A stretch of DNA of 63,983 nt, the filler included, from Licmophora abbreviata (taxonomy: Eukaryota): NCBI GenBank assembly GCA_900291995.1. It is 12 parts of 12 records of this genome, joined end to end, with 100 filler letters (N's around TTAATTAATTAA, not from the genome) between each part and the next. Parts side by side here need not be neighbours in the genome. Positions count along the whole stretch, not along the records: positions 16,154 to 19,965 come from OLMU01005104.1; positions 20,066 to 26,615 come from OLMU01005105.1; 10 more parts are not named here. One strand, given 5' to 3'. Shown here in pieces: positions 10,347-27,205 of the stretch. Every line of letters starts with the position of its first letter. The stretch's first letter is position 1. The notes under the pieces were generated by a model. That model worked only from the letters and a program-made list of their open reading frames with translations. It was not told the DNA's origin and did not search any database. The position numbers and the translations under genes are program-made.

Positions 10347-11096
10347 NNNNNNNNNNNNNNNNNNNNNNNNNNNNNNNNNNNNNNNNNNNNTTAATTAATT
10401 AANNNNNNNNNNNNNNNNNNNNNNNNNNNNNNNNNNNNNNNNNNNNAAGCCGGACGGGTCGGAGCCATCGCTTTTGATTGGAAGCGCAGTGTTCGATGAT
10501 AGGAGCAGTAGTACATACGTGGTTCATTTGGATGCAAAGTGCAAAAACTCTTAGGAGATGATGAATGGATCTCTCCTGTTGTTCGCAGCATGTTCGTGTG
10601 CCATGTGATCCGGTTGGGTAATACATGCGGTGTCTGTCGGTCGCAAATCTCGCTTAGTACTTTCTCATGATAACCGGCCTTGTCTACTCGTATTCTAATT
10701 GATAAAAGTTGAAAACGCCTATCCCATGACCTTTGAATAATACGACTGTAGTATAACATACGCGTTGCTTACTAGCATCCACTGTCAGCTTTGATGAAAT
10801 GGAAGCTGTCCTCGTTCTCTCGGCAAAGTCTGTCGGCAGACCCCACCGGACCTAAGACACCTGAACGATTGCATGAACGCCGGATGTTAAGTACAATACG
10901 TGTTCTGCGTTGGCATCTTTCTTGAAAACTTGAAACCGTCATTCTTCTGCGTCACGATGTCGTCGACCACCACGCACGACGGCAAAACTCATCGAAGGGG
11001 GAAGAAACGATTTCAGGAATTCTCTTCGTGCTGCTCATAACTCTTCAATTCCCTTTCCCAATACCGGTATCTTACCTCTAGTGACTGAGTGAGACC

Positions 11097-13832
11097 ATGT
11101 CGGGCGATAGTTCTCAGTCCACAGTCGTCGCCGCTGGCGTCGGAGCGACCCTGCAGCTCTTTCGATTCTCATTCGATGTGATCGCTACGGCCTCCCAGCA
11201 TGCTCGAACACAGGAGATGAAAGCCGAGACGAAGAGGACGAGTAGTGACGGGAATGTGGAAGAGTCCAAAACGGGACGCCGTTCTTCTGTGGTCTTCTTC
11301 AATGGACGGTTTTCAGCCAAACGGAGCAAACTCAATCTCAGCTCCATGAATGGCACCACGACCGGTGAAGTCAAGAACGACGCTGACGATGTCGATGATG
11401 GCGTCACCACGGTTCTGACACCCCAACAACGAATATTGACTTACTGCTCGACACTGTTGAATCTTGCACTCTTTTTCTACTTCCTGGTAGCCTGCATCCT
11501 GAATGCGACTGGCAATGGTGGAAATGGAACGCTGTATGATGCAATACCGTTGGGCTGTGCCACCGTGGGATTCTTTCTGTGCTGTGTTCTCAATGTACGA
11601 GACTTTTCCAGGAAACGCTTCTCGTTCTTGCAGAGAACGCTGCATGTCATGTCCTCGCTTATCTTTCTGTTGGCAATCGTCTTCTTGTTGGCTCTCGACG
11701 ACAACACTAGCAACGACATGACCACTCTAGACATCGTCTCCTTGGTCGCATTCAGCCTGTTCACCATTATGGCTTTCTTGGAATCCAAACTCCTTCCCTA
11801 TTTCTTCGAAACCACGCACTCCCATGACAAGAAGGCCAAACTGTCCAAGCGTGCGGTCTTTACAGTCTTGAAGCCTTACTTCTGGCCGGACGCGACGTCG
11901 ACATCGGCCACGTTGAATCGTGCTCGAGCCTTGACAACATGGGTGTGTGTCGGCGCATCCAAGAGTTGCAGTTTGTTTGGCCCAATCTTTCTTGGTAAAG
12001 CGTCTACAGCATTGTCCCGCGGGGATTACGAAGAATGTATCAGAAACAGTATCTACTACGCCCTCTTGAACTTTTCGGGGTCCTTTTTCAAAGAAACGCA
12101 GTCTCTTGTCTATCTGAAAGTGGCACAAGCTGCCTTTGTTCAGCTGTCAGAAGTTGCTTTTCATCATCTGCATTCGCTTAGCCTGGACTGGCATTTGAAG
12201 AAGAAGCTTGGAGAAGTCATCCGAAGTATGGACAGAGGAATTCTGGCTTGCGATACCTTGATGAAATACATGTTTCTATGGCTGCTGTAAGTGAAAACTA
12301 TGCAAGTGCGATGGAATGGTGGTGTCTGTAGGTCACAACAGCTGATCCATCTCTTCCCTCATCTGCTCAGCCCTGCCCTTGGAGAATGTATCCTTGTTTG
12401 CATCATCTTTGCAATCTACTTTGATTACTTCCCCCTCGCTGTCTCGGTCTTCTTCTTCGTCTTTGCCTATGTTATGATGACGATTGTACTTACACTTTGG
12501 CGCAAACGTTTTCGCAAGGCGGTCGCCATCTCTGATAATGACTGGCACGACAAAGCAACCGACTCACTGGTGAACTTCGAGACTGTCAAATATTTCACAG
12601 CGGAGGAATACGAGATGAAACGATTTGGTGAGTCTGTCAAGACCTATCAGATGGGGAGTGTCAACGTGGCGGCTTCGCTGGGTTTGCTCAATATCTCTCA
12701 GCAAGTATTACTGCAATTGTGCTTGGCAACTTCTTTGACCCTGGCCACGATTTCGATTCGAGACCGCTCGAATTGTTGTATCACAAACGGGTGTGAGGAT
12801 GGCAACTCAAGCTGCTGTTCGCAGCTTGAGAGCATTTGCTCCGGAATGGAAATTGGAGACTTTGTCGCCGTCTTGACGTACACTCTCAATCTCTTCACGC
12901 CTCTCAACTTCTTGGGCTCTGTGTACAATGCTATTGTCATGGCAATGGTCGATCTAGCGAATCTCTCGGAACTGCTTGCGGAGTCACCAGATGTGACGGA
13001 CACTCCCGACGCCATTGAGTTACCACCTCGCAACAACGATGACCCAGAGACAGTTGTGGAATTCGACAATGTCATCTTTCACTATCCATCGCAACCGGAA
13101 ACGAGTGGTCTGAAAGGTGTATCCTTCAAAATGAAGAAGGGAACAGTGAATGCAGTAGTTGGTTCAACTGGGGCGGGGAAAACAACTGTTTCACGTCTCT
13201 TGTTTCGCTTCTATGATGTTGTCGGGGGTGCCGTGAAAGTGAACGGGGTGGATGTGCGAGTCATAAAACAAAAGTCTCTTCGAGACAAGATTGGAGTTGT
13301 TCCCCAGGCGACCACCATGTTTAACGATACGCTCGGCGAAAATATTCGATACGGGCGACGGGATGCTACACAGGAAGACCTCGACGAGGTCGCAAAGGCA
13401 GCGCAGCTCACGAGCTTTATCGAGTCCCTCCCGGACAAATGGAACACGACGGTAGGTGACCGTGGTCTCAAGCTCTCTGGTGGCGAAAAGCAGCGCACTG
13501 CAATTGCTAGGTGCCTTCTGAAGAATCCACCTATTGTGATTTTAGACGAAGCGACGTCAGCCCTTGATACTTTGACCGAAAACAGCGTTCAGGAAGCGTT
13601 GGATCGTCTTGGGTCTGATCGCACTGTTTTGGTGATTGCACACCGCCTGGGTACAATCAGGAACGCGGATAACATCATTGTCTTGGACGATGGACGGGTG
13701 GCAGAAGAAGGAACACACGACGAGCTACTCGAACGAGGTGGTAAATACGCTGACATGTGGAACATGCAGTTGAGTTCCACCAGGACAAGTCAAGCCAGTC
13801 TTGGTCTAGATACAGATGCTGATCCCAACTAA
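11097..13832 (+). CDS. ABCB half-transporter, HMT1/ABCB6/ATM type; intron 12287-12370
   Basis: N-terminal extra TM region, HLHSLSLDWH, DSLVNFETVKYF, Walker A GSTGAGKT, LSGGEKQR, ILDEATSALD. The splice restores the frame. Confidence 0.93.
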
Positions 13833-14273: not shown

Positions 14274-15748
14274 ATGTTTTTGTTTTCGAACTCTTTATCG
14301 ATCATGCTGGCGGTGGGCGTGTCGACATGCTGTTCGACGGCTGCCTTTCATCCCATGTCCCTCGTCTCGTCTCCTTTCTCCAGCGTTGCTCGGGAGAGCA
14401 CTGTCCTCATGATGAACAAAAAAGCTAAAGGGAAGAAGAAGAAGCAGGGCAGTCGTAGTAAGCCACAGGGCTTCGCAGGCGCGTTGCGAGACTTGCAGCT
14501 GGCCAGTTTCAGCTATGCGGGCGACATCCGGCCTGGGAAACAGAGTCCGCAGCGAATCGTCGTTGAAGAAGGTATCACTCTTCCAGACTACGCACTGGAT
14601 GGAACGGTACGTTTGAGGGTCCATCCAATGAATGTACAACTGAATGTCCCTAGATACTCACATGCTGTGACCTTTTGTTCAGCCCAAGAGTCGGACCAAG
14701 ATGTTGCCTTGGGTAATCGAGGTGAAGACTCCTGCAGAAATTGAAAAGATGCGGGCAGCCGGACGGGTGGCACGAGAAGTCTTAGACGCTGCCGGACGAG
14801 CTGTGCAAGTCGGTGTCAGCACCGATGAGATTGATGCTCTGGTACACGAGGAAAGCCTGAAGGTGCGTGTTGCCCGGCTGCACTTTTTCTTCTTGGCCAA
14901 CCTTGTAGGTCTACACGAGCTCACCTCCTTTCCTTCCTTTCTTAGAGAGGAGCGTATCCCTCTCCCCTAAATTACCACGGCTTTCCGAAATCGTGCTGCA
15001 CGTCTGTAAATGAGGTTATCTGCCATGGTATCCCGGACGATAGAAGGCTGCAGCCGGGAGACATAATCAATCTCGATATTACCTGCTATCTGAATGGCTA
15101 TCATGGTGATTGTTCCGAAATGTTCGTGGTGGGCGAACCGGATGCCGCTGCTAAACGCTTGATCCAGACCACGTATGACTGCTGGGTGTCAGCTATGGAT
15201 TATGTCAAGCCGGGAAGAGACTACAAGGAGATCGGCGCCATCATTGAAGACTCAATTGTGCCACTAGGCTATAGCACAGTCCGAAACTTTTGTGGACATG
15301 GCATTGGATCTGTCTTTCACACGAACCCCAACATCTACCATTACAGGAACTCGGAACCAACAGGACAGATGGCTGCTGGGCATACGTTTACGATAGAACC
15401 GATGATTTGTGAAGGCAGTGGTAAGTCGATGGAGGAAAGAGTGGCAAAAGCAGCACTGTGCACATCTCGCCTGTCATCTCACGTCATACTTGCGTTTCAG
15501 CCAAGGCACTCACCTGGCCAGATGAGTGGACGGCCACAACGGTGGATGGAAAGAGATCAGCACAGTTTGAGCACACGCTTTTAGTCACGTCAGATGGTGT
15601 CGAGGCGATGACCGGCAAGATAGAGACCTCGCCTCTGCAGTTCTGGGAGAAGGAAAGCGACGTCCACAAAGGATTCTGGCTGGGAAATACACAAGAGGCC
15701 AAAAAGCGAGCGGAGAAGCTTACTGCGGCATTTGAGAACAGCATTTAA
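14274..15748 (+). CDS. Methionine aminopeptidase type 1, probably plastid-targeted, three introns
   Basis: [55 protein letters not shown] and SAQFEHT spread over exons; signal peptide ending TAA-F. Confidence 0.93.
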
Positions 15749-16155
15749 AAAATGGTATGCAATGCAGGCTTGCTAAACAGATTTGTTATGATCAACCTTA
15801 TCGCAATCTTGCAGGAGTGGACTAACTTATGGAGTAGGGTTTCCCAGAGGTATGCGTAGTCCAAGTTTCAAACATTTGGCCCTACTTCACTGTAGCGGTA
15901 TGTCTTTCGCCATCTCCGAGATTCATCAGTGGAGCCATTTGGTTAAGGTGCCGAGTGAGAAAGGACGGACGGCAGGAGGACCAGAGTGATTTGATTCGAT
16001 TCGAGTGAGTCAGAGAAAATGTTGAAAGTTTTGTGGATGTTGATGAATGTGGTNNNNNNNNNNNNNNNNNNNNNNNNNNNNNNNNNNNNNNNNNNNNTTA
16101 ATTAATTAANNNNNNNNNNNNNNNNNNNNNNNNNNNNNNNNNNNNNNNNNNNNAT

Positions 16156-19100
16156 CAAGCCTTCTGGGATCTTATCGCCGAACGTGGATATGTCCAAGAA
16201 GTCATCGGCGTCCGTTACGGGAAGGGAGAAGTTCCATGGGATGGCAACATCGGAAATTCTTCCTTTCCGGCGTCTCCGTACGAAGGCCTCATTACCGACG
16301 GCAAAGAGCTCGAGTTCGACTGCTCGCTCTTCGGCATGTCTGTTATTGACGCCAAGCGTATGGACCCCCAGATCAAGATGATGCTCACGGTTACGTGGGA
16401 AGCTCTCCAGCGCGCAGGAATGGACCAGGCTGCGCTACACAACTCCGACACTGGCGTCTTCATTGGAAATCAGACGTCTGCCGCTGCGGGTTGGAGGGCG
16501 CCAATGGGAGCGACATCTCCCGACGTACCTGGTCGAAGTGGTGCCATGATTGCCAACCGTATCTCCTACCACTTCAACTGGATGGGCCCATCGTTCTCCG
16601 CCGCGACAGCATGCTCTTCAGGGATCACTGCGCTTGATTCAGCTGTCAAGTCGCTTCGCCTCGAAGAGTGCACCGTCGCCGCATTTGGAGCCGTGCATTA
16701 CCTGGGACACTTGCAAAGTAGTCTCGGATTCAATGCACTTGGCATCATCTCGAAGACGGGAACATCACGCTCGTTCGACAAGGATGCAAATGGCTACATG
16801 CGTTCAGAGGGTGCCTTCGTCTACATTCTCAAGCGGCTTGCCGACGCAGAGCGTGATGGCGACAAAATCTTTGGTGTCATTCGAGGCTGTGGACTTAACA
16901 CGGCTGGAGCGGAGCCTGATGCTGACGTGCTCACTCAAGGACGAATGATCCTTGCGCCTGTGGGGAACGCCCAGGCCGCTCTCATGACGAAGGTTGCGGA
17001 GGAAGCTGGCGTCAACCCTACCGACGTCGACTACGTTGAAGCCCACGCTACCGGAACCACAGTTGGCGATTCCACTGAAGGAAATGCTATCGGCTCCGTC
17101 TATGGATCTGCTGATCGAAGGACGCCGCTTCGGCTAGCAAGTACCAGAAGCAATCTCGGCCATATGGAATCCTCGAGCTTCACGTGTTCTGTCCTCAAGG
17201 TCCTCCTTATGCTTCAACGGCGACAATTTCTACCTGTCTCTTCGCACTTCAAGGAACCGAACCCGAATATTCCATTCGAGGCCAAGAAGATGCGCGTTCA
17301 GACCACTGTTGAGGACTTCCCAGATCACGATGTGATCGTCGGCATCAACTCTTTTGGATTCGGCGGTGCCAACGGTCATTGTTTGATCGAAGAGTACCGC
17401 CCAGAGACAGAGGTGTGGTCTAGTTTGCCAGGCACATTAGAAGGCAAGACCTACATGGTCCCACTCTCGGCTAAGTCAGATGAGGCGCTCGTTGAAAACG
17501 CCCGTCGTCTTGCGGAACGGCTCCCTGAGCTCGAGGGTGAGGTGGACTTCTACACTTTGGTTGCAAACCTGAGCGTTAGGATGACGCACCACAGGGTTCG
17601 TAAGGCTTTTACAGCAACATCCTTGTCGGATCTCCAGGAACAATTGGTTGCATTCACTGAATGTGCCGATCAAGACGGACATGAAGCTGCTGGAGTGACG
17701 AAGATTCAAAGCCAAGCCAAGGATTACTCGCCAACCTCCGTCATGGTGTTCCCGGGACAAGGTTCGCAGTGGCCTGGCTGCGGAAAGGAGCTTTACGAGA
17801 CGGAGCTCGTATTCCGGCGTGTAGTTGATGTGATCGATGCCGAGTGGACGAAGCTATCGGGCGGAAAATTGAGCGACGTGGCATTCGACGCTGACGACGC
17901 AGGCGAAATTCTCAACGAATGCCAGTGGGCGCAGCCCGTCACATTCCTTCTGCAAGCTGGACTCTTCGAGATGCTCAAAGCTCACGGGGTTCATCCAAGT
18001 GTTGTTGTTGGGCACTCGGCGGGCGAAGCTGCTGCGGCGTACGCAAGTGGAGCCTACTCGCTCGAAGAGGCGTGCCGCCTTGTCTACTATCGCTCGCAGC
18101 TTCAGCAGAAACTTGCCGGATCGGGCCGAATGCTAGTGTTGATGCAAGACGTGGCCTCAGTCAAGGAGACCCTCACGCGTCTTGGCTTTAGCTGCGGCGA
18201 AAGCGAAGGTGGCATTTCAAACGACGTGGAGATAGCGTGCTTGAACTCACCGACCAACACGGTCGTTTGTGGAACTGAGGAAGTGATCACGAGAGTTCGC
18301 GATCAACTTGAAGCTGACGGACAGCCAGCTGGAAAGCTCATTCCTGGAAACATTGCCTTCCACTCAAGTCACACCAAACCCATTCATCAGGACTTATTGA
18401 ATGCCCTTGCACCTCTCGATGGCGAAGAACCTCGATCCGGTACTACTCCTATGATTTCCACTGTAACTCGCACTCTGTTGAAGAACTTCGACTCCGAATA
18501 TTGGTGGGAGAATGTGCGAAAGAAGGTCGATCTTCTTGGAGCAATGGACACAATTCGCGAGCGCTTGCACCCGGACGTGCTCATTGAAGTCTCGCCTCAT
18601 ATCACCCTTCGCTCGCCAATCCGTGACTGTTTTACTGAGGACGGAGGGACGTTGCCACCCTATATCTACTCTCTGGTTCGTGGTACAGATGCAGCTGTGT
18701 GCTTTGCTCGCACTCTCGGCAGCTGTTTCGAGGCGGGTGTGCCTGTTGACTTCCAAACCGTCTACCCCCGTCCCAAGCCTATTACTCATGTTCTTCCGGC
18801 CTACGCGATGAAACGAGAGCAAGTTGTTGACAAACTGTTCGACGACTCTGCACTCCTTCGCGAAGAATATCACTGTGCTGGTCCAATGCTTGGTAAGCAT
18901 ATTCAAGGCCCTGCTATGGAGTACCAGGCGGTCTTCTCGAAGTCTATTTGCCGGTGGATTCTTGACCATGTTGTCCAAGGGAAGCCAATTTTTCCCGCAG
19001 CGGGATACATTGAGCTTCTTCTCGAGGCTTTCCACGGTGATCCGATTCGTGTGGTTAGCGCAAGAGTTCTTGCTCCTTTTGTGATTGGTGACGAAGGACG

Positions 19101-19965
19101 GTACCTTCACACGAGTCTTCGCCCGTACTCGTACGCCCCCAATCGATTTGAGTTCTCGGTGACTTCTCGTCCGCATGCTGATTTGAATACCGAAAGCATC
19201 GTGCATTGCGCGGGAATCGTGGAGAAGCTGGACAAGGAAAAAACCTCAATCTCGGTCCCGTCTGGGACGAAGTGGGTGCTGGGTGACGCTGAAAGCGAAA
19301 CCAAAGGATTCGATCTGCACTATGGAGCCAGCGAGCCTTTCTATGCATCCATGGTTGCCAAGATTGGCGAGAGCTTTGCGTACGGACCTTTCTTTCAGTC
19401 CATTCAGAAGATTCATCATAACCCCAAGACGAAGGTTCTGTATGTAGAGATTGCTATCGACCATGAACAGTGGGCACAGTGGGACCGCATGGGTTACATG
19501 TTCCACCCTACAATGCTCGATGGAGCTCTACAACTGTACCTTGTTTACCTTATGGAAGCTTCCGATAACACGGGAGTTCCTCAGATGATGAACGACTTTG
19601 TTATGTTGAGGAAACCGTCGTCGGGACGCATTGTCTGCGTGTACGAACCACCTGAGTACTTGAAGCATCAGCACCAGAAGGGTCAGCTTACATTCGGTTT
19701 AGGAGAGCGACCTGCTGGTACCATCTTCGTGTATGACGGGGAAACCCGCGAGTTAATTGCGTATCTTGGTCAGTACTCAGGGTTCGGCTCCAACAATCAC
19801 GTGCCGGATTTGAAGAGAGTCAAGCACTTTCTCTCTTGGCAGCCGAAAGACGACTGCAACGCCAAGACCGTTGCGTCCAGAGCTGCTGAGGCTCTGTCGA
19901 GCGGAAAGGGTCTCGCATGTGCGGTAGAACTGCTTGTCAAGGATCTTGTGCACAAGGCCCACCCC
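16156..19965 (+). CDS. Type I polyketide synthase, N-terminal half: KS-AT-DH (both ends truncated by gaps)
   Basis: KS: TACSS, EAHATGT, SNLGHME, NSFGFGGANGH. AT: FPGQGSQW, GHSAGE, IAFHS. DH: DHVVQGKPIFPAAGY, HPTMLDGALQ. The frame is open from the contig start (QAFWDLI…). Confidence 0.95.
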
Positions 19966-20065
19966 NNNNNNNNNNNNNNNNNNNNNNNNNNNNNNNNNNN
20001 NNNNNNNNNTTAATTAATTAANNNNNNNNNNNNNNNNNNNNNNNNNNNNNNNNNNNNNNNNNNNN

Positions 20066-23000
20066 CCGGCGAAGCTTGCCATGGAGGAGTGTATCAGCTG
20101 TTTGAACAATACCCCAGCTCAGTACACACTTCTCTCAACCGACACTGAGTATCTCGTTGCTAAGTACCAAGAGAATGGTGCAAGAAACCACGAAGCGCAC
20201 CTTCGTTTCTTCAAGAACGAGGAGTTGACTGCTGATAGTGGGTATCTCAGGCCTGCCATGTTCGAGCTGCTTATTCTGAGGGTAGCTCGATCGCAGGAGG
20301 ATGAGTCTGAGACCGCGCCAGAGGAAGAGCTGAGCAATCTTGCAAAACTCGTGTCGCCTGGCGGTCTTGTTTTGGTTGAATCAACGGGGGCCTCAGTCGA
20401 TGTGCCAGCAGATTGGTCTTGCATTTGGAGAACTCCTGACGAGTCCACTGTCTCAACTGACGAATCTGGGGCTGTGATGCCCACTATCATGCTTTTGCAG
20501 GCGGGAAGCTCGACAGTGGAGAAAACCTCTGTGTCACGCCTGGAATTAGACGCAGATGCGAAACCGTCGATTATCGTCGACGACTCTTTGGGGTATGCTC
20601 ACTACTGGCGCAAGCATGTCACGTCCAACCCTGCCGAGAACTCTGACCGCGTTGATTTCAGTCAAGCTCATCGATGGGAGCGCGTCGATTACTTCGCAAT
20701 GGATGATCAGGAATTGGAAGGCGTACTGGATCCTGACCTTTTCGTTGGGCCAGTGCAGTTGACCGAATGGGTGAAGCCGTTTGCGGCTGGACGCGCTGAT
20801 TCATCAGATCTGGCACCTTGTATTTTCACCGTCTTTACCTCCGGAGCTGTGCTTGATGTGACTTCTCCCAGTCAGACTGGAATCTGGGGTGCAGTTCGTG
20901 CCATGGCTGCCGAGCTGGCCGAATGCAAGGTCGATTTTCGTTTGATTGACATTGCGTCGAAGGAAGATCTCCGCTTCGTCAGCGGCATCGAAGTTATGCG
21001 TGAACGCGAGTTGTGCGTGCACCACGGCCGGGTTTGGACGTCAAGGCTGATTAACCATCGGGAGCTCATGCCCCTCGCCGAGCTAGCCGGCGACGACGGA
21101 ACGGCCTATCGTCTGCACACGAATAACTCTGGTCAACTCGCCGATGTCGAGTTTCGTACGTACGAGTCGCCGCCTCTTGGACCCACGGAGGTCGAGATAC
21201 TGGTAAAAGCATCTGCTTTGAACTTCCGAGATATTATGGTCGGCCTTGGAAGACTGCCGCTTCTGTCGTACGAGCGGTCAATGCTCGGAAGAACGGTGGG
21301 AATGGAGTGTGCCGGTGTAGTGTTGAGATGTGGTAGTTCCGTGACAAAGTTCAGTGTCGGAGATGAGGTGATGGCAATGCAGGGCGGTTGCATTGCCAAC
21401 CGCTTGACATGTGACTACAGGGCTGTCTCACACAAGCCGGAAAACTTGTCCTTTGAGCAGGGCTCGTCTACGCTATCTGTGTACGCAACAGCTTACTACG
21501 CCATGTGTTACTTGGCGCGAATTCGCGAAGGACAGACTATCCTCGTGCACTCGGCAATGGGTGGAGTTGGGCAGGCCGCGATTGCCCTTGCAAAAATTCG
21601 TGGTGCGCGCGTCTATGGTACTGCAGGCTCCGAAACCAAGCGGGCGAAGCTTCTCGAGATGGGTTGCGTCGATGCATTTGATTCTCACTCGACAGACTGG
21701 TACACAGACTTGATGCGAGCTACAGACGGCAAGGGAGTGGACGTTGCTCTCAACTCGCTTGCCGGTATGCACATTGACCTTTGTCTGGAGGCTCTGGCAC
21801 CGGGAGGCTGGCACTGTGAGATTGGAAAAGTTGACATTTTTGCTGACCGGCCGATGAAGATGGCGGTATTCCGAAAGAATCTCCGCTACGCCGCGATTGA
21901 CATTGACAGACTCATGTTGGATGATCCGTTCTTGGTGTCCGAGCTGACAGATGCCTGCTTGGATCTCTTGAAAGAAGAGAAAGTTCCAGCTCTGCCTTAC
22001 ACCACCTTCTCTTACGCCGACTACCAGAGTGCACTTACTTATATGGTGAATGGACGTCACCAAGGGAAGATTGTGCTGAAGCCACCGGAGGCAAACGAGA
22101 AGATTACAGTGATTGACGAGCGACCTCTTTTCGGGTTCGGTCAGGATGGTCAGCCGCGCACAGTCCTGTTAACTGGGTGCTTTGGCGGATTCGGCATTCG
22201 AGTTTTGTCGTATGTCATCGCACTCGGCGCCAAGAACATCCTGATGTTAGACCGGGATCCTTCGGGCCGCCGATCGGCTGAATGGGTATGCCAACATTCC
22301 GGTGTGGATTTCCTCTTGGAGGACAAGACTGACGGCCTCAATATTCAGATAGTTCATGCTGACGTGAGCAAGTACGACGATGTTGTCAAAGCCGTGGACG
22401 CTGTTTCTCTGCTGGGAATGCCGCCGATTGGCTCTGTGTTCCACTTGGCCGGTGTCCTGGATGACAAGCTTCTTGGAGAAATGGATGCAGAATCGTTTGC
22501 CAAAGTCTATGGTCCGAAGGCGAATGGAGCGTGGAATCTTCATCGTGCAACACTGGACTGCAAAGAGATCGAGCATTTCGTCATGCTATCGTCCACTTCT
22601 TCTGCTTTTGGAAATCCTGGGCAAACGAACTACTCGGCAGCTAACGCTTTCCAAGATGGTCTAGCTGCGCTGAGACAACAGAGTGGAAAGCCCGCCACCT
22701 CGTTCTGTATGACGGCACTTAGCGAAACCGGAATGGCGGCGAAAGATCCGCAATTGTTGCAACTCATGAAAACGAAGGGTATGCCTGCAATTTCCACGAT
22801 CTTTGCAATCGAGTCAATGGATTGGGTTCTTCGTCGCGGGGCGAACCACTCCAATGCTGTTGTAGCTCTCGTTACCGACATCGAAACTGACGTTGGCTCC
22901 TCTGATTTCTTACGATCGGTGGCTCAGCTTGCTCGGAACTCAGCGGCCTTCAAGTTTGGAGGAAGTGGTGCGCTGTCGATGGAAGAGATCATCGACCTTG

Positions 23001-26000
23001 TTGCCGCAAGGGTTGCCTCCCTTTGTGGGGTAGAGGAAGTCGACCCGGCTGAGCCCTTCTCTAGCTATGGACTCAACTCCATCTCGGTTGCTGAGTTGAT
23101 TATTTTCCTCAAACAGGAAATGTCGTTCACGATCAGTCCGATGGAGCTCATGACTTCTGCAACCTGTCAGAGTATTGCAGAAGGTATTCTCAGCGCTAAC
23201 GACGAGAAGGAGAACAAAGATAGAGCGGCGGCTGATGGAGACGAGGAAGACTCCAGCTCGGAGAATGCCGATGAAGTTGAGCCAGAAGATCTCGTCCTCC
23301 CATCGCGCCAGTTGGTCGACGTGTCGTCTCGATTCGCACCGTCTTTCAAGGAACATTTTGCAGGTACCTCGGTGGTACCTTTCAAGAAGCAAGTCCGCAA
23401 GGAGAACAGCCAACTTCATGTCTCATCAGCTGTGGAGACGACCGTCACGAGTGCGGGTCTTCAAGAGATGATGGATTCACTTCCTCCAGAGTGTAAAGAT
23501 GCCCTTAAAGAACTCGTTGCCTTCGTGCGCTCTCTGGGAGATGGAGCTATTGCGCCAGCCACGCCTGTGAGAGAGATGCGAAGCGTCATGATCACTGGTG
23601 CGACGGGATTCGTTGGTCGACATTTCATTGTCGAGCTTCTGAAGTGCTCTGATGTGCACATCGACACGATCTATTGTCCTGTGCGTGCTGGCAGCGACGA
23701 CGAGGCTCTTCAGCGTGTCGTCGATGCTGTAGGGGAAGTTGGTCTGTGGGACGACTCTTACCTCGGGCGCATTTGTGCCTTCAGTGCTGATCTGATGGAT
23801 GATACCTTCCGCACCTCTTCCGAAATGTATGACCAGCTTGCGGACAAGGTGGATGCTGTCTACCACTTTGCGTCTGACCTGAACCTCGCTGCACCTTTCA
23901 AAACGATGCGAGCAAGGAACTGTTGCTTTTTCCGGCCCGTCGCTAGGCTTTGCGTGTCAGGAAAGCGAAAGCATCTCTTCCTCGCTTCAACGCTTGGGAT
24001 GTTTCCTCAGTACTCTTGCGAGTTCGCCAAAGAGATGGCCGACAAGCCAATTGCTCAAGACGCCATCCCTGATGTTGCGTCGATGAAGCGTTTGTTCCCG
24101 CTCGGTTTGAGTGGATACCAGTGGTCCAAGCTTGTAATCGAGGTCGCCGCACGTGAGTTTTCAGAAGCCAAGAAAGTCCCACTTGCTGTCTTCAGGCTTC
24201 CCAACATCACGACCAATAGTAAGTTCTTTGTTGAGTGTCAGCTGGCTATTGAATGCCTTTGTTTGTAATTTTCCTCGACTCACGGATCACTTCATCAACT
24301 TAGGTGTCAGTGGATATTTGGCTGCAGACGACCCGCAGGCGAGGGTCTCCTTCGCTGCGATTCAGCTCCGGATGACACCCAAGCCTGATGGTTCACCGTT
24401 CAATGGAGAAGATGGCAAGGTATGCAACGAAATCATGCTCAGGGTTTCTTTGAACCCTTCGAGAAAGCATACCATCTACCATTGCTCTAGAATCTGCCCT
24501 GTGATCAGTACTGAAATACCGTTCCTCGACAAGCTGGGATTGGCGTGCGAACCCACCTCTTTCACGAACTTCAAATCCCAATGCCAGAAGCTCGGCAGTA
24601 AGTCGGCTCTCAACTCCTACTGGGCACTCGTAGATTTCTACAAAGCGTATTGGTTCGACGAGGGCGCCCGATTTGGGCCGCGTCCCATCGATATCACTTC
24701 TTTGCATGATGATTGTGTCCCGCTTCCAGATGCAACATCGATCATGACTTTGCTCTGCAACTGTGCGAAGTGGTCGTTCGGTCACCCCGAGTCGCTGCCC
24801 TTTGAGGCCAGCATCATGCACGCATCGATTGACCTGCAATCCGTCCTCCAACCGGCGCGAAAGATGTGTAGCACGTATGACATCGACTTCGACACTGTTG
24901 TGCCGCCCCATGTTCGTGAGGGCCTGCAGCGGATTTGCGAAGGGGTCGCAGAGAAGGTATCGCCAGCCATGATTCCTATGGTTTCCTTTGATCTGACATC
25001 GAAACTTGAAAGTCGCTTTCAAATGCACCGTCTGCTTGCGATGCACCCGGAGATCAAGCAAGAGCCTATTGTGAAACCAGTCTTCATACTTGGTCTCAAC
25101 CGTACCGGAACAACCTTTCTACACCGGATGCTCGAGGCGTCCGGCTGCTTCGATGTGCCCTTTCCCGAGGAGCAGTACTTTTTGCCGAAAGCAGATTCTT
25201 TCGCCAACTCTGATCCTCTGAATGATGGCGAGCGACTGTCGTTCCTTGAAAGCGGGAGGAAAGAAATCACGCAATCGTTCGAGGGAAGTCATGAGTTCGT
25301 GCTTGGAGTTGCTGAGGAGGATATGTGTGCTCACTCGCATGCCTTTGCGTCTTTGGAGTATGATGTCCTCTACGGCCTACCTGAGTATCGTGCCTGGCTT
25401 GACAGCCAAACTCTTGACGAAGTTTATGCTGAACACCGGCAGTGGATGCAGTTGATTTCTTGGGCTCGGCGGCAAGCGAACAAGAAACCAGTCGGACGGT
25501 GGTGCTTGAAAATGCCTTGGCACGCTCGATCGCTCCCGGCGCTTCTTAAGGCATATCCTGACGCGGTGCTCGTGCATACACATCGCTCCCCAGAACAGGT
25601 AGCAGGATCTTGGTGTTCACTTGTTGAGAGACAACAAAGTTATTATTGTGGGGAGACAGCTGTCAATCTTACACAACTAGGTCAAGACCAGATGGAATCT
25701 CTCAGGTTCACCCTTGATGCTGCGATGCAATTCAGAACGGAACATCCTGAACTCCAGAAGCGGTGGCTGGACCTGCAATTCGAAGACCTGATCTCGGGGC
25801 CTCTTGAGAGTGCCAAGCAAGTCTTTGCCCATGCCGACGTCCCCGTCGATGATCAAGTAGCCCAGACTGTTCATGCTTACACGTTGAAAGTATGCAGAAG
25901 CATAGTGCTGCCAATCTTCAAAAGTACGACATGCGGGATTACGGTATTGTGGAAGCTGACTTTGATGAAGATGATGTGTTCAGGAAGTACAAGACACAGT

Positions 26001-26011
26001 GGTTGAACTGA
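20066..26011 (+). CDS. Type I PKS, C-terminal half: pseudo-MT/ER/KR/ACP/thioester reductase (R)/sulfotransferase; intron 24219-24303; apparent 1-nt frameshift near 25887
   Basis: ER: LNFRD, LVHSAMGGVGQAA. KR: GCFGGFG, HLAGVLDD, YSAAN. ACP: GLNS. R: ITGATGFVG, GYQWSK. ST: PVFILGLNRTGTT, LKMPWH, HTHRSPEQVAGS. An 85-nt GTAAG…TAG intron joins ORFs 20081..24268 and 24153..26006 in frame. Confidence 0.9.
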
Positions 26012-26094
26012 AACCATAACGGTCAGAGTCGACTGGCCGGAGTGGTTGTTGTTCCCGAATACTGTCTCCCATCGTCATTATACGTTCAGTTTTA

Positions 26095-27205
26095 ACTGTA
26101 CCAGGTACCGGTACGGATATAATACGATAGTATATGTTTGTGATGTGAGAATGTTTGTGATGTTGTGATGTGAGAATTCAGTTCCCCCTACTACCTGGTA
26201 AGCGGCACGGGAGCTATAGGAGTTTAAGACTTGGTACCGGTACCAGGTACAAGTACGGGAGAACGAGTGGTTACCCGGTAGACTCTGCAAAGTATAGACG
26301 AGCACTGAGGCTTCATTCATCTTCATTTCCAATTTCAGGTTCCAGGCGTACTTCCTCTGTATGACAAGGACCAACAGACTGATACTCTGGCGGCCTTCCT
26401 ATCTTCACTCATGGTGGTACTTGCGGCACAAGAGCGTAGCCAGAGTTTTTTGGAACACCAGGACTGCACCTTCGTAGATGTCTCTAAAAATTCATTTCTT
26501 CCTGAGTATCCTTTGTTTGAGCAGCAAAACATACCGGTACCTGCTTTTGCTCGTTTCAACATACCGGTATGCCCAATAATTGATTACTTCATCCACGCTT
26601 GAAGTGACTTTGGTCNNNNNNNNNNNNNNNNNNNNNNNNNNNNNNNNNNNNNNNNNNNNTTAATTAATTAANNNNNNNNNNNNNNNNNNNNNNNNNNNNN
26701 NNNNNNNNNNNNNNNGGTACAGCAGAGGCTCTACCAGGTACCATACCCGTATCGGTACACAGGTTTCTTGTACCGGTATCGTTAGAAGTAAAATGCCGGA
26801 AAGTGGAATGCGGGACAGGAAAATTGAATGGTGCTTGGAGCGACGGTCACAAACTTGTCGCCCATGCGTGGTGGACTGCTACTATCTGGTACCAAGTACC
26901 GGTACCGGTACACGTGAGTCCTGGCATGCTTGCTTGGTTCCAGACACCTGCTCCCGGCAACGATAACGACAAAACAAACTTCCTTGTTGTTGTATACTGA
27001 AGCATAGTAGCGAATTCGAAGTGCAGGAGTTCATTGGGACATGTTCGTCGCCCTAGGAAGTTTACTCGCTACGAATGCCAGGTATCATCAGGGTACTACC
27101 ACAGGTACCTGGTACTCGTACCTACGAATGACTGCTGTGTACCTGGTACCATACACCATGGAAGTACTGTACCAGGTACACTCACTACCCTGGTACCGTC
27201 GGTAT
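26095..27205. repeat. GGTACC/TACCAGGTA/GTACCGGTAC-rich palindromic low-complexity non-coding DNA on both sides of a gap
   Basis: Many copies, e.g. 26098-26114, 26232-26250, 26730-26778, 26887-26911, 27090-27198. Confidence 0.7.

Follow-up and report, generated by a model that had tools for sequence, protein, structure and literature searches.

The window, that is the whole stretch of 63,983 nucleotides that was analysed, contains what is probably (we put it at roughly 60%) a single gene in the nuclear genome of a diatom-like alga, encoding a reducing polyketide or fatty acid synthase (PKS/FAS) that ends in a thioester reductase (R) and a PAPS-type sulfotransferase (ST) and that would make a primary alkyl sulfate. 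That figure holds for the explanation as a whole and thus covers the reading of the core as an iterative, fully reducing, single-module type I PKS/FAS, in which we infer the iteration, a property that is not readable from sequence. The one-gene, intron-bearing algal form is a variant of systems that were already known, such as the bacterial swf gene pair and the R-ST ends of apicomplexan synthases.

Probable continuity of the gene over two contigs

Twelve contigs make up the window, with spacers of the form N44-TTAATTAATTAA-N44 between them, and the map of N-runs showed that 16156-26011 is made up of two contigs and is not continuous DNA. Contig A (16154..19965, + strand) carries the 5'-truncated start of the gene with the ketosynthase (KS), acyltransferase (AT) and dehydratase (DH), as seen from the N-run map, the ORF and Pfam; contig B (20066-26615) carries the enoylreductase (ER), ketoreductase (KR), acyl carrier protein (ACP), R and ST. 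The artificial spacer between them (19966..20065) stands where approximately 18-20 codons of the gene are absent. A gene had earlier been drawn over the full length of 16156..26011: the domains and motifs are indeed present, but the span is broken by the spacer, and because the latter separates two contigs the continuity from DH to ER has to be inferred. A change of frame at 20013-20081 that was read as an intron was rejected, as it coincides with the contig spacer.

The frame of contig A comprises 1270 codons, from 16156 to 19965, and is open at both ends. Its 5' end is cut by the contig start at 16154, and approximately 27 N-terminal residues are absent when compared to the homologs L004, L005, P0013, P0016 and P0019. 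At the break, the frame is open on the side of contig A as well as on that of contig B. Three homologs span the break: L004 (an ORF of 3,159 aa, of a gene type with an intron in the KS) and L005, both read on single DNA, and P0006, one predicted protein. Contig A ends at residue 1129 of the L004 ORF (residue 952 of P0006) and contig B starts at residue 1148 (973), so that 18-20 residues are absent between the two. The identity to L004 and L005 is 52-53% for contig A and 53% for contig B, and GC3 is 0.572 and 0.569, respectively. Because the homologs align across the break with only these 18-20 residues missing, contigs A and B very likely represent a single gene, with a predicted product of about 3,270 aa.

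Domains from ketosynthase to sulfotransferase

Domains were called by Pfam on the translations of 16156-19965, 20066-24217 and 24306-25889, and motifs were located by position; all domains and motifs listed in the earlier note were recovered. All features lie on the + strand, and the residue numbers given between brackets refer to the Pfam matches. On contig A we found: the KS (16297..17238), with its N-terminal (PF00109, 48-231, E 3e-47) and C-terminal half (PF02801, 263-361, 6e-27), the Cys in TACSS at 16606 and the His residues in EAHATGT at 17038 and GHMES at 17158; the AT (17743..18642; PF00698, 530-829, 6e-51), with GHSAGE at 18010 and IAFHS at 18352, the xAFH motif of which we take to be of the malonyl type; and the DH (18883..19611), a double hot-dog (PF21089, 910-1005; PF14765, 1057-1152) with HxxQGxxxxP at 18967 and DGALQ at 19519. 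Contig B opens with a structural region of 371 codons between DH and ER (20066..21178), which is collinear with P0006 and L004 and in which no Pfam family was found. This region is followed by an ER of the MDR type (21179..22078; ADH_N and ADH_zinc_N; PF08240, 372-452; PF00107, 500-590; PF13602, 536-671) with GGVGQ at 21560, a KR (22160..22720; PF08659, 699-885, 4e-48) with G.FGG.G at 22175, VLDD at 22454 and YSAAN at 22631, where VLDD presumably marks the domain as B-type, and an ACP (22997..23182; PF00550, 978-1039, 8e-9) with GLNSIS at 23069. The set of a reducing type I PKS is thus complete (KS Cys-His-His, AT GHSxG Ser, DH His, the nucleotide folds of ER and KR, and the ACP Ser), and the order KS-AT-DH-ER-KR-ACP, although spread over two contigs, is collinear with that of the one-gene homologs.

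The exon-1 part of the R domain (23591..24218) matches NAD_binding_4 (PF07993, 1176-1383, E 1e-35) with 123.6 bits at a cut-off of 20.1, and contains a nucleotide fold with TGATGFVG at 23594 and a Tyr/Lys pair in YQWSK at 24116; the underlying TGxxGxxG and YxxxK are, as we assume, the defining motifs of thioester reductases. The profile TIGR01746, which has an NCBI cut-off of 213 bits, scores 125 bits (E 3e-36) on the exon-1 half and 167 bits on the intact L004 homolog. The domain is interrupted by a spliceosomal intron of 85 nt (24219..24303, GTAAGT..TTAG, phase 1, with a split codon AGT for Ser), across which L004, P0006 and P0002 align without loss or gain of residues; the intron that had been proposed earlier is therefore real. 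Mapping of contig B to metagenome data yielded 22 short pieces (151-386 nt), from four of the four runs and without joints; among these 22, none crosses the 5' end of the contig and none presents the spliced-out form of the intron. One piece, guessed to be RNA, begins within 24219-24303. A search of sequencing runs gave no RNA run among those that matched, the best run containing 0.21 of the sampled words.

Exon 2 starts with the C-terminal part of R, followed by a linker and by the stretch that extends the ST at its N-terminus (24304..25076), as delimited by TIGR01746 on L004, where the match extends to profile position 318 of 371, and by the alignments with solved ST relatives, which begin at query residue 203. 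The ST itself runs from 25077 to the frame break at 25881 and matches Sulfotransfer_3 (PF13469, 258-516, E 1e-36; 127.5 bits, cut-off 27), with GLNRTGTT at 25092, KMPWH at 25509 and HTHRSP at 25575. Both GLNRTGTT and HTHRSP..S, which we take to be the PAPS-binding loops, are aligned in the solved structures 2z6v (E 1e-28) and 2zq5 (E 2e-27); these are presumably mycobacterial Stf enzymes, their entry titles reading 'Putative uncharacterized protein', and the ESM Atlas matches were limited to generic bacterial sulfotransferase clusters. At 25881..25882 the sequence is one base short: one metagenome contig (depth 2, which may derive from the source sample) has an extra C behind 25881. This 1-nt gap puts the last 42 codons (25883..26011) out of frame and is otherwise the only break; the stop codon (TGA, 26009-26011) and the C-terminal YDxxDYGI of the homologs are found in the +1 frame only. 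A short intron at 25890-25924 was considered and rejected, since the one-base difference accounts for the shift. The absence of a thioesterase (TE) domain, as claimed before, was borne out: no thioesterase family was found by Pfam at E ≤ 0.01 in the coding parts of both contigs and the stop codon directly follows the ST. The 3' flank (26012..26615, up to the contig end) contains GGTACCGGTACC-type palindromes, and no long ORF was found in it.

Relatives, host and known systems

Relatives of the exon encoding ER-KR-ACP-R are mostly bacterial proteins with the order KS-AT-DH-ER-KR-ACP, 2,330-2,420 aa long and approximately 39-45% identical (for the 120 of 207 near-length matches that were listed). 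The R-ST end groups with proteins that consist of R-ST only (771-921 aa, 27-33% identity in the didomain, of which P0011 and P0014 have the size of SwfB) and with fused bacterial proteins. A search of algal transcriptomes for the same domain order had been suggested in the earlier note; among the proteins scanned here, that order was encountered in full (KS-AT-DH-ER-KR-R-ST) in P0013, P0016 and P0019 (2,932-3,183 aa; an ACP was called in P0013 only) and in N-terminally cut form in P0006. NAD_binding_4 directly precedes Sulfotransfer_3 in eight of the nine scanned proteins of at least 2,000 aa. Fused forms were also found in Saprospiraceae MAGs, in other eukaryote-like (algal) contigs and, multimodular, in apicomplexans. 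The suggestion that the alga possesses a fused SwfA+SwfB-like enzyme therefore fits with respect to kinship, but such fusions also occur outside this alga. In the R-ST tree the didomain is kept as a unit in three clades. The R-ST and PKS trees are congruent, with the algal clade adjoining the fused P0019, its closest outgroup in both. Judging from the PKS tree, a quick one rooted on two long apicomplexan rows, the algae most likely acquired the gene in its fused state from a lineage of bacteria. For the PKS part, no Amphora entry occurred among the same 120 of 207 near-length matches listed or among 14 matches to shorter proteins (word-indexed searches).

The diatom-like host proposed earlier is supported, and with it the assignment to a nuclear gene, because of the intron, the composition and the closest relatives. 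The best R-ST match is a protein of Amphora coffeiformis (56% identity), to which the gene is sister with a support of 100/99 in the R-ST tree; for the CysRS on a neighbouring contig all eight of the organism-named matches are diatoms; and the GC3 of the PKS (0.57) matches that of the eukaryotic contigs, against 0.81-0.85 for the bacterial ones. Beyond 42299 the high-GC contigs are of bacterial origin, and the one at 52951-62221 matches the bacterial genome G001 with 96% identity; a search of that genome with the PKS contigs gave no match.

Various known systems resemble the gene in part. The operon described for sponge-associated bacteria (Della Sala et al. 2013; PMC3908369) encodes, according to the swf part of that paper, SwfA (KS-AT-DH-ER-KR-ACP, 2349/2361 aa), SwfB (R and ST, 839/832 aa) and SwfC, a radical SAM protein (encoded on only one of the two fosmids that were published); the composition given in the earlier note was thus correct. 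The domain set and order, with R and ST after the ACP, are the same as here, a likeness that rests on the size and domain order of SwfA and SwfB. The differences are that swf has PKS and R-ST as two genes in bacterial hosts, whereas here ACP, R and ST share a frame that is interrupted by the intron only, in a eukaryote, and that no SwfC-like gene is in view here on a contig that ends 604 nt past the stop. The protein of two uncultured Saprospiraceae MAGs (L001 and L002, 3,179 aa), P0016 and P0019 have the KS-AT-DH-ER-KR-R-ST order in one protein as well, but are bacterial and lack the intron (identity 39-43% for the PKS and 28-30% for R-ST); at the two Saprospiraceae loci no radical SAM gene was found beside the fused gene, a PPTase was present at one of the two, and no conserved partner was common to both. 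The type I FAS/PKS1 proteins of apicomplexans (coccidians and gregarines) are eukaryotic too and likewise end in NAD_binding_4 and Sulfotransfer_3 (P0032, P0073), but they have several modules (4,100-6,000 aa) and branch in the R-ST tree as a clade of their own with full support. R-ST ends of coccidian synthases are already in print, in a passage of PMC3908369 and in the legend of Fig. 2 of PMC3760245. CurM and the cyanobacterial olefin synthases share with our gene a PAPS-dependent sulfotransferase built into a PKS; in their ACP-ST-TE arrangement, as summarized in PMC3908369, the ST sulfates a beta-hydroxyacyl-ACP, leading to decarboxylative alkene formation. There a TE follows the ST, whereas here the TE is lacking and R precedes the ST, and the CurM ST was absent from the solved-structure matches of our ST at E ≤ 0.01. 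The closest solved relatives, MxaA (4u7w) for R and 2z6v/2zq5 for ST, are bacterial and stand-alone or NRPS/PKS-terminal, and occur in separate proteins, unlike R and ST here. Searches of the open-access literature retrieved no publication that deals with a single-module PKS of algae ending in R-ST, with the product of swf or any other R-ST terminus, or with the fused bacterial homologs.

Some alternatives concern the gene as such. An artificial junction, a contig B start that is overreached by none of the mapped metagenome pieces and an assembly that mixes a eukaryote with a bacterium would be in line with two separate PKS genes (paralogs, or from two organisms of the bin) that were put in order by accident, with no protein reaching from KS to ST. 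We give this a very slight chance, as the contigs are complementary, without overlap and without an absent domain, are co-oriented, in frame and 18-20 residues apart on three homologs, and are equal in homolog identity and GC3. The gene might also be a decaying pseudogene, with a genuine frameshift at 25881 that deprives the ST of its last 42 residues: the shift is present in the window as assembled and the extra base occurs in that single low-depth contig only. This is nevertheless very unlikely in view of an open frame of about 9.5 kb with every catalytic motif and no second break, of the conserved YDxxDYGI that is kept in the out-of-frame tail, and of the site itself, where the difference is one base in the length of a C-run. 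That the contigs would derive from a fused swf gene of the co-binned bacterium, not of the alga, is hardly credible: the closest characterised relatives come from bacteria, in which fused forms are known too, but the canonical 85-nt GT..AG intron in R, backed by collinear homologs, the GC3 far from that of the bacterial contigs, the lack of a match in G001 (which does carry the contig at 52951-62221) and a diatom protein as sister all argue for a nuclear gene of the alga.

Proposed product and its implications

The product would be a long-chain alkyl sulfate, as far as domain content can tell. The AT would load malonyl units, from which KS, KR, DH and ER would assemble an acyl-ACP that is saturated or carries few functional groups; R would then release the chain as a primary alcohol by four-electron reduction and the ST would transfer sulfate from PAPS onto that alcohol, yielding a primary alkyl sulfate. 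Beyond the enzyme only a PPTase should be required, and neither a thioesterase nor a helper gene. The same type of product, an alkyl sulphate, is suggested for SwfA and SwfB in the swf section of PMC3908369, and our search of the open-access literature retrieved no report of an alkyl sulfate from diatoms.

The same gene could, however, carry out another chemistry, with an R that forms the aldehyde only, or an ST that acts on a secondary hydroxyl left by skipped DH/ER steps; a sulfated hydroxy-alkanal or an alkane-diol mono- or disulfate would then be formed and not a simple primary alkyl sulfate. Such an outcome is rather unlikely in our estimate. The sequence of R is compatible with two-electron and four-electron reduction alike, and its solved relatives cover both kinds: carboxylic acid reductases (5msc/5mso), MxaA and 4dqv. 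In the known algal sulfolipids of chrysophytes, sulfate sits at a secondary position in addition to a primary one. Furthermore, the chain may become 'variously functionalized' when reducing domains skip cycles, as worded in the swf section of PMC3908369. On the other hand, the motifs of DH and ER are intact, the closest solved R (E 3e-20) is MxaA and not a carboxylic acid reductase, and R-ST directly follows the ACP and is kept in three clades, for which reduction followed by sulfation of the newly formed hydroxyl is the simplest explanation. MxaA is, as we assume, an alcohol-forming terminal reductase. These points favour the primary alkyl sulfate.

An alkyl sulfate of this kind would be a natural anionic surfactant, with possible roles in membranes, allelopathy and grazer signalling, and a possible precursor of the chlorosulfolipids, the marine producers of which are not yet identified. 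According to a 2026 report, marine chlorosulfolipids follow diatom blooms (PMC13413282). Besides the diatom-like alga, Amphora and several high-GC microalgae carry the family, and one may speculate that it constitutes the synthase still missing for the backbone of algal sulfolipids, the long-chain alkan-1-ol sulfate of which would subsequently be hydroxylated, sulfated again and chlorinated to give chlorosulfolipids. We regard this as doubtful; if true, it would provide a genetic source for the marine compounds and reveal the product of the bacterial swf clusters too. The latter has been unknown since 2013 because the hosts are uncultured sponge symbionts, and is still given as such in the relevant parts of a 2013 and a 2022 paper. 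A survey from 2020, covering the genomes of three diatoms, mentions no type I PKS in its section on diatoms (PMC7073580), which makes it worth noting that a diatom-like genome encodes a reducing one. A culturable diatom relative, Amphora coffeiformis, in which the R-ST part is present, offers a tractable route to the chemistry, because a single ORF can be expressed together with a PPTase or the gene can be removed in a diatom.

Probable continuity of the PKS gene across two contigs

The window (63,983 bases) is not a single molecule: it consists of 12 contigs that are separated by 11 spacers of the form N44-TTAATTAATTAA-N44 (starting at 10347, 16054, 19966, 26616, 28374, 42199, 44757, 47121, 51385, 52851 and 62222), and it represents a mixed bin, with six diatom-like contigs (GC ~0.5) and six bacterial ones (GC 0.59-0.67). 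The pieces up to 42198 have a GC content of about 0.47-0.53 and carry eukaryotic genes (adaptin, Dcp2, class II PheRS and CDP-diglyceride synthase); the pieces from 42299 onward fall in the higher range and carry bacterial genes, e.g. PntB and an ABC permease. The contig at 52951-62221 is 96% identical to a bacterial genome (G001, 3.9 Mb), in which no match to the PKS contig was found. On the contig placed directly before the PKS we observed an ABC transporter gene (ABC_membrane and ABC_tran; 11085-13832), with a single in-frame stop (12288-12290) that lies probably within a short intron, followed by a Peptidase_M24 (methionine aminopeptidase-like) gene at 14946-15584. The transporter would stand ~2-5 kb upstream of the PKS if the contig order were the scaffold order.

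The PKS gene itself is spread over contig A (16154-19965) and contig B (20066-26615), and because positions 19966-20065 are an artificial spacer the continuity between DH and ER is not shown by the window. We therefore turned to homologs. The query encoded by exon 2 (the C-terminus of the thioester reductase, R, plus the PAPS-type sulfotransferase, ST; 528 aa) was searched against 1.84 billion representative proteins and gave 4,120 matches at E ≤ 1e-3 and 55 at E ≤ 1e-30. Ten of the best 150 of these 4,120 matches were at least 2,000 aa long and aligned at their C-terminal end; NAD_binding_4 immediately precedes Sulfotransfer_3 in eight of the nine that were scanned with Pfam, protein P0047, with a TE ahead of ST, being the sole exception. 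The order KS-AT-DH-ER-KR-R-ST was recovered in P0013, P0016 and P0019 (2,932-3,183 aa; ACP called in P0013, not in P0016 and P0019, Pfam, E ≤ 1e-6) and in the N-terminally cut P0006 (2,876 aa, without an ACP call). A metagenome scan yielded eight loci with homologs, in two of which (L004 and L005) the complete gene lies on unbroken DNA, with the N-terminal half of KS in one frame and the remainder in an ORF of 3,159 aa and 3,072 aa, respectively.

The end of contig A corresponds to residue 1129 of the L004 ORF, 1042 of the L005 ORF and 952 of P0006, and the start of contig B to residues 1148, 1061 and 973, which makes the contigs consecutive with 18-20 residues missing between them. They run in the same direction, each is open in frame where it meets the break, their identity to L004/L005 is alike (52-53% for A, 53% for B) and GC3 is equal on either side (0.572 and 0.569). 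No read or contig spanning the break was found. On this alignment evidence we consider contigs A and B to be very probably (about 0.95) parts of a single gene about 3,270 codons long.

Domain content, intron and reading frame

The Pfam domains found were KS, the KS-AT linker, AT and DH on contig A, and ER, KR, ACP, NAD_binding_4 and, past a frame change, Sulfotransfer_3 on contig B; no thioesterase family was found by Pfam on either contig, and no loading domain precedes KS in the complete homologs. All motifs quoted in the earlier note were located, each at its expected place. Present are the Cys and two His of KS, GHSAGE and xAFH in AT (the latter presumably malonyl-type), HxxxGxxxxP in DH, the nucleotide folds of ER and KR, the latter also with its LDD and Tyr motifs, the serine motif of ACP, and TGxxGxxG and YxxxK in R. 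The closest solved relative of R is MxaA (E 3e-20), which we take to be a four-electron, alcohol-forming reductase, ahead of the carboxylic acid reductases and the mycobacterial Nrp R domain; the score against the NCBI thioester-reductase model lies under its cut-off. Both loops of ST align with the solved relatives 2z6v and 2zq5.

The feature described in that note is real and was well read, allowing for a short gap, an absent start and a frame problem of one base: its domains and motifs stand over the span 16156-26011, but a continuous, complete, in-frame gene does not, given the spacer, the cut 5' end and the break in frame after 25881. As compared to L004/L005 and three bacterial homologs about 27 residues are absent at the 5' end, comprising the start and the first KS strand (type M..PIAIIGYGYRLPGG). 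The intron at 24219-24303 (85 nt, GTAAGT..TTAG, phase 1, split codon AGT) rules out a bacterial gene; in L004, P0006 and P0002 the alignment runs to the final residue of exon 1 and picks up two residues further on, at residue 2 of exon 2, exactly as predicted by removing that stretch.

An extra C at 25881 is present in one marine-metagenome contig (run X1, perhaps the source sample; depth 2), and with it the frame continues for 42 codons to a TGA at 26009-26011, codons that include the YDxxDYGI block typical of homolog C-termini. The break after 25881 is therefore probably a slip of the assembly or a polymorphism within a short run of C, and a real frameshift, as the assembled sequence reads, is unlikely. 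The 3' flank (26093-26571) holds several GGTACCGGTACC-type palindromes, an 18-nt inverted repeat (26097-26114 / 26234-26251) and a tandem ATGTTTGTGATGTGAGAAT motif.

Host, relatives and origin

GC3 of the three PKS pieces is 0.57, as compared to 0.50-0.61 for the other eukaryotic ORFs and 0.81-0.85 for the bacterial ORFs. The R-ST piece has its best match in the diatom Amphora coffeiformis, a protein of 56% identity that was sister to the window sequence (support 100/99) when 27 R-ST regions were compared in a careful tree. For CysRS, encoded on the first contig, all eight organism-named rows among the 120 matches listed were diatoms (55-61% identity), which is supporting evidence only because the gene lies on another contig of a mixed bin.

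In the R-ST tree, the window, Amphora, P0002-P0006 and L004 form a fully supported clade of eight rows. The source organism of L004/L005 is eukaryote-like (GC 0.66), with ankyrin and LRR proteins encoded beside the gene and a GT..AG intron of canonical type, roughly 270 nt long, within KS (about 870-1150 in L004, about 2365-2630 in L005), at a site that is intronless in the window. Three further records (L006, L007 and L008) are 99.7-99.9% identical to one another, with the R-ST frame open to the 5' end. In two of them the sequence ends at a shared position, about 450-620 nt past the ST stop, in 8-10 consecutive A, as expected of cDNA; the records have the look of polyadenylated transcripts from a high-GC relative. 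The members of the algal clade and their introns place the family in several microalgae, with lineage-specific introns. The KS intron of the high-GC homolog contains tandem CCGAGATGCA-like units and C-rich repeats.

The fused bacterial forms and the R-ST-only proteins share one clade (99/99), which includes the fused P0013, from two uncultured Saprospiraceae MAGs, and the R-ST-only P0011 cluster with a Candidatus Palauibacter protein; the fused P0016 is sister to the unfused P0014, which implies fusion or fission more than once. The multimodular apicomplexan-type synthases (Rhytidocystis, Gregarina) cluster apart, in a clade with 100/100 support. At one locus (L001) the fused Saprospiraceae gene is followed directly downstream by a gene for a 4'-phosphopantetheinyl transferase (15585-16334, minus strand); none stands beside it at the second (L002).

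Most of the 120 near-length relatives listed for exon 1 were bacterial KS-AT-DH-ER-KR-ACP proteins (2,330-2,420 aa, about 39-45% identity), the few named ones being Gemmatimonadetes, Rhodobacteraceae and Boseongicola MAGs. A quick tree was built from 24 KS(C)-AT-DH regions, with two apicomplexan modules as its root. In it the algal trio was a clade (SH-aLRT 100) with the fused P0019 as its sister (100), and the 16 unfused bacterial proteins formed a separate clade (99). P0019 is the ORF of locus L009, whose gene-dense contig (GC 0.39, flotillin-like neighbours) looks bacterial. Both halves of the gene give the same history, and the simplest reading would be that an already fused gene passed from bacteria to algae; since the tree is a quick one with its root on long rows, we infer rather than observe this acquisition.

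Known systems and predicted product

The earlier note's account of the sponge-symbiont swf system, with separate SwfA (KS-AT-DH-ER-KR-ACP) and SwfB (R-ST), agrees with Della Sala et al. (2013, PMC3908369). The gene is a fused, intron-bearing, diatom-type member of this swf-like PKS plus R-ST kind, and as other fused forms exist in public data the fusion is not unique to the window. The same paper reports contiguous R-ST otherwise only in two coccidian type I FAS, and ST is drawn at the end of Toxoplasma and Eimeria PKS1 in a scheme of PMC3760245 (2013, mBio), so a eukaryotic synthase with a terminal ST was already in print. Neither a description of a single-module algal PKS ending in R-ST nor a proven product of any R-ST terminus turned up in the open-access literature, and the diatom section of a 2020 algal genome survey (PMC7073580) lists terpene clusters and 'Other(A)' genes for three diatoms, with no type I PKS mentioned there.

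The product chemistry is predicted only: the PKS module would be used iteratively, in an FAS-like manner, chain release by R would yield a primary alcohol, and this alcohol would be sulfated by ST using PAPS. This is the product proposed for SwfA plus SwfB in PMC3908369; the swf portion of a 2022 sponge-microbiome paper presents a conserved cluster without a named product. A 2026 paper (PMC13413282) describes marine chlorosulfolipids, the abundance of which correlates with several diatom taxa, their producers and genes not being identified, and this correlation makes the gene family worth raising as a speculative candidate for an algal sulfolipid backbone synthase.

CurM ends in ST-TE, whereas here R precedes ST and there is no TE; for these reasons, and because CurM is absent from the solved-structure matches, the CurM-type logic is inapplicable. 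Two further architectures were seen within the ST family: KS-AT-KR-DH-ACP-TE-ST in P0047 (2,511 aa) and AT-DH-KR-ACP-R-ST, without ER, in P0054 (2,530 aa).
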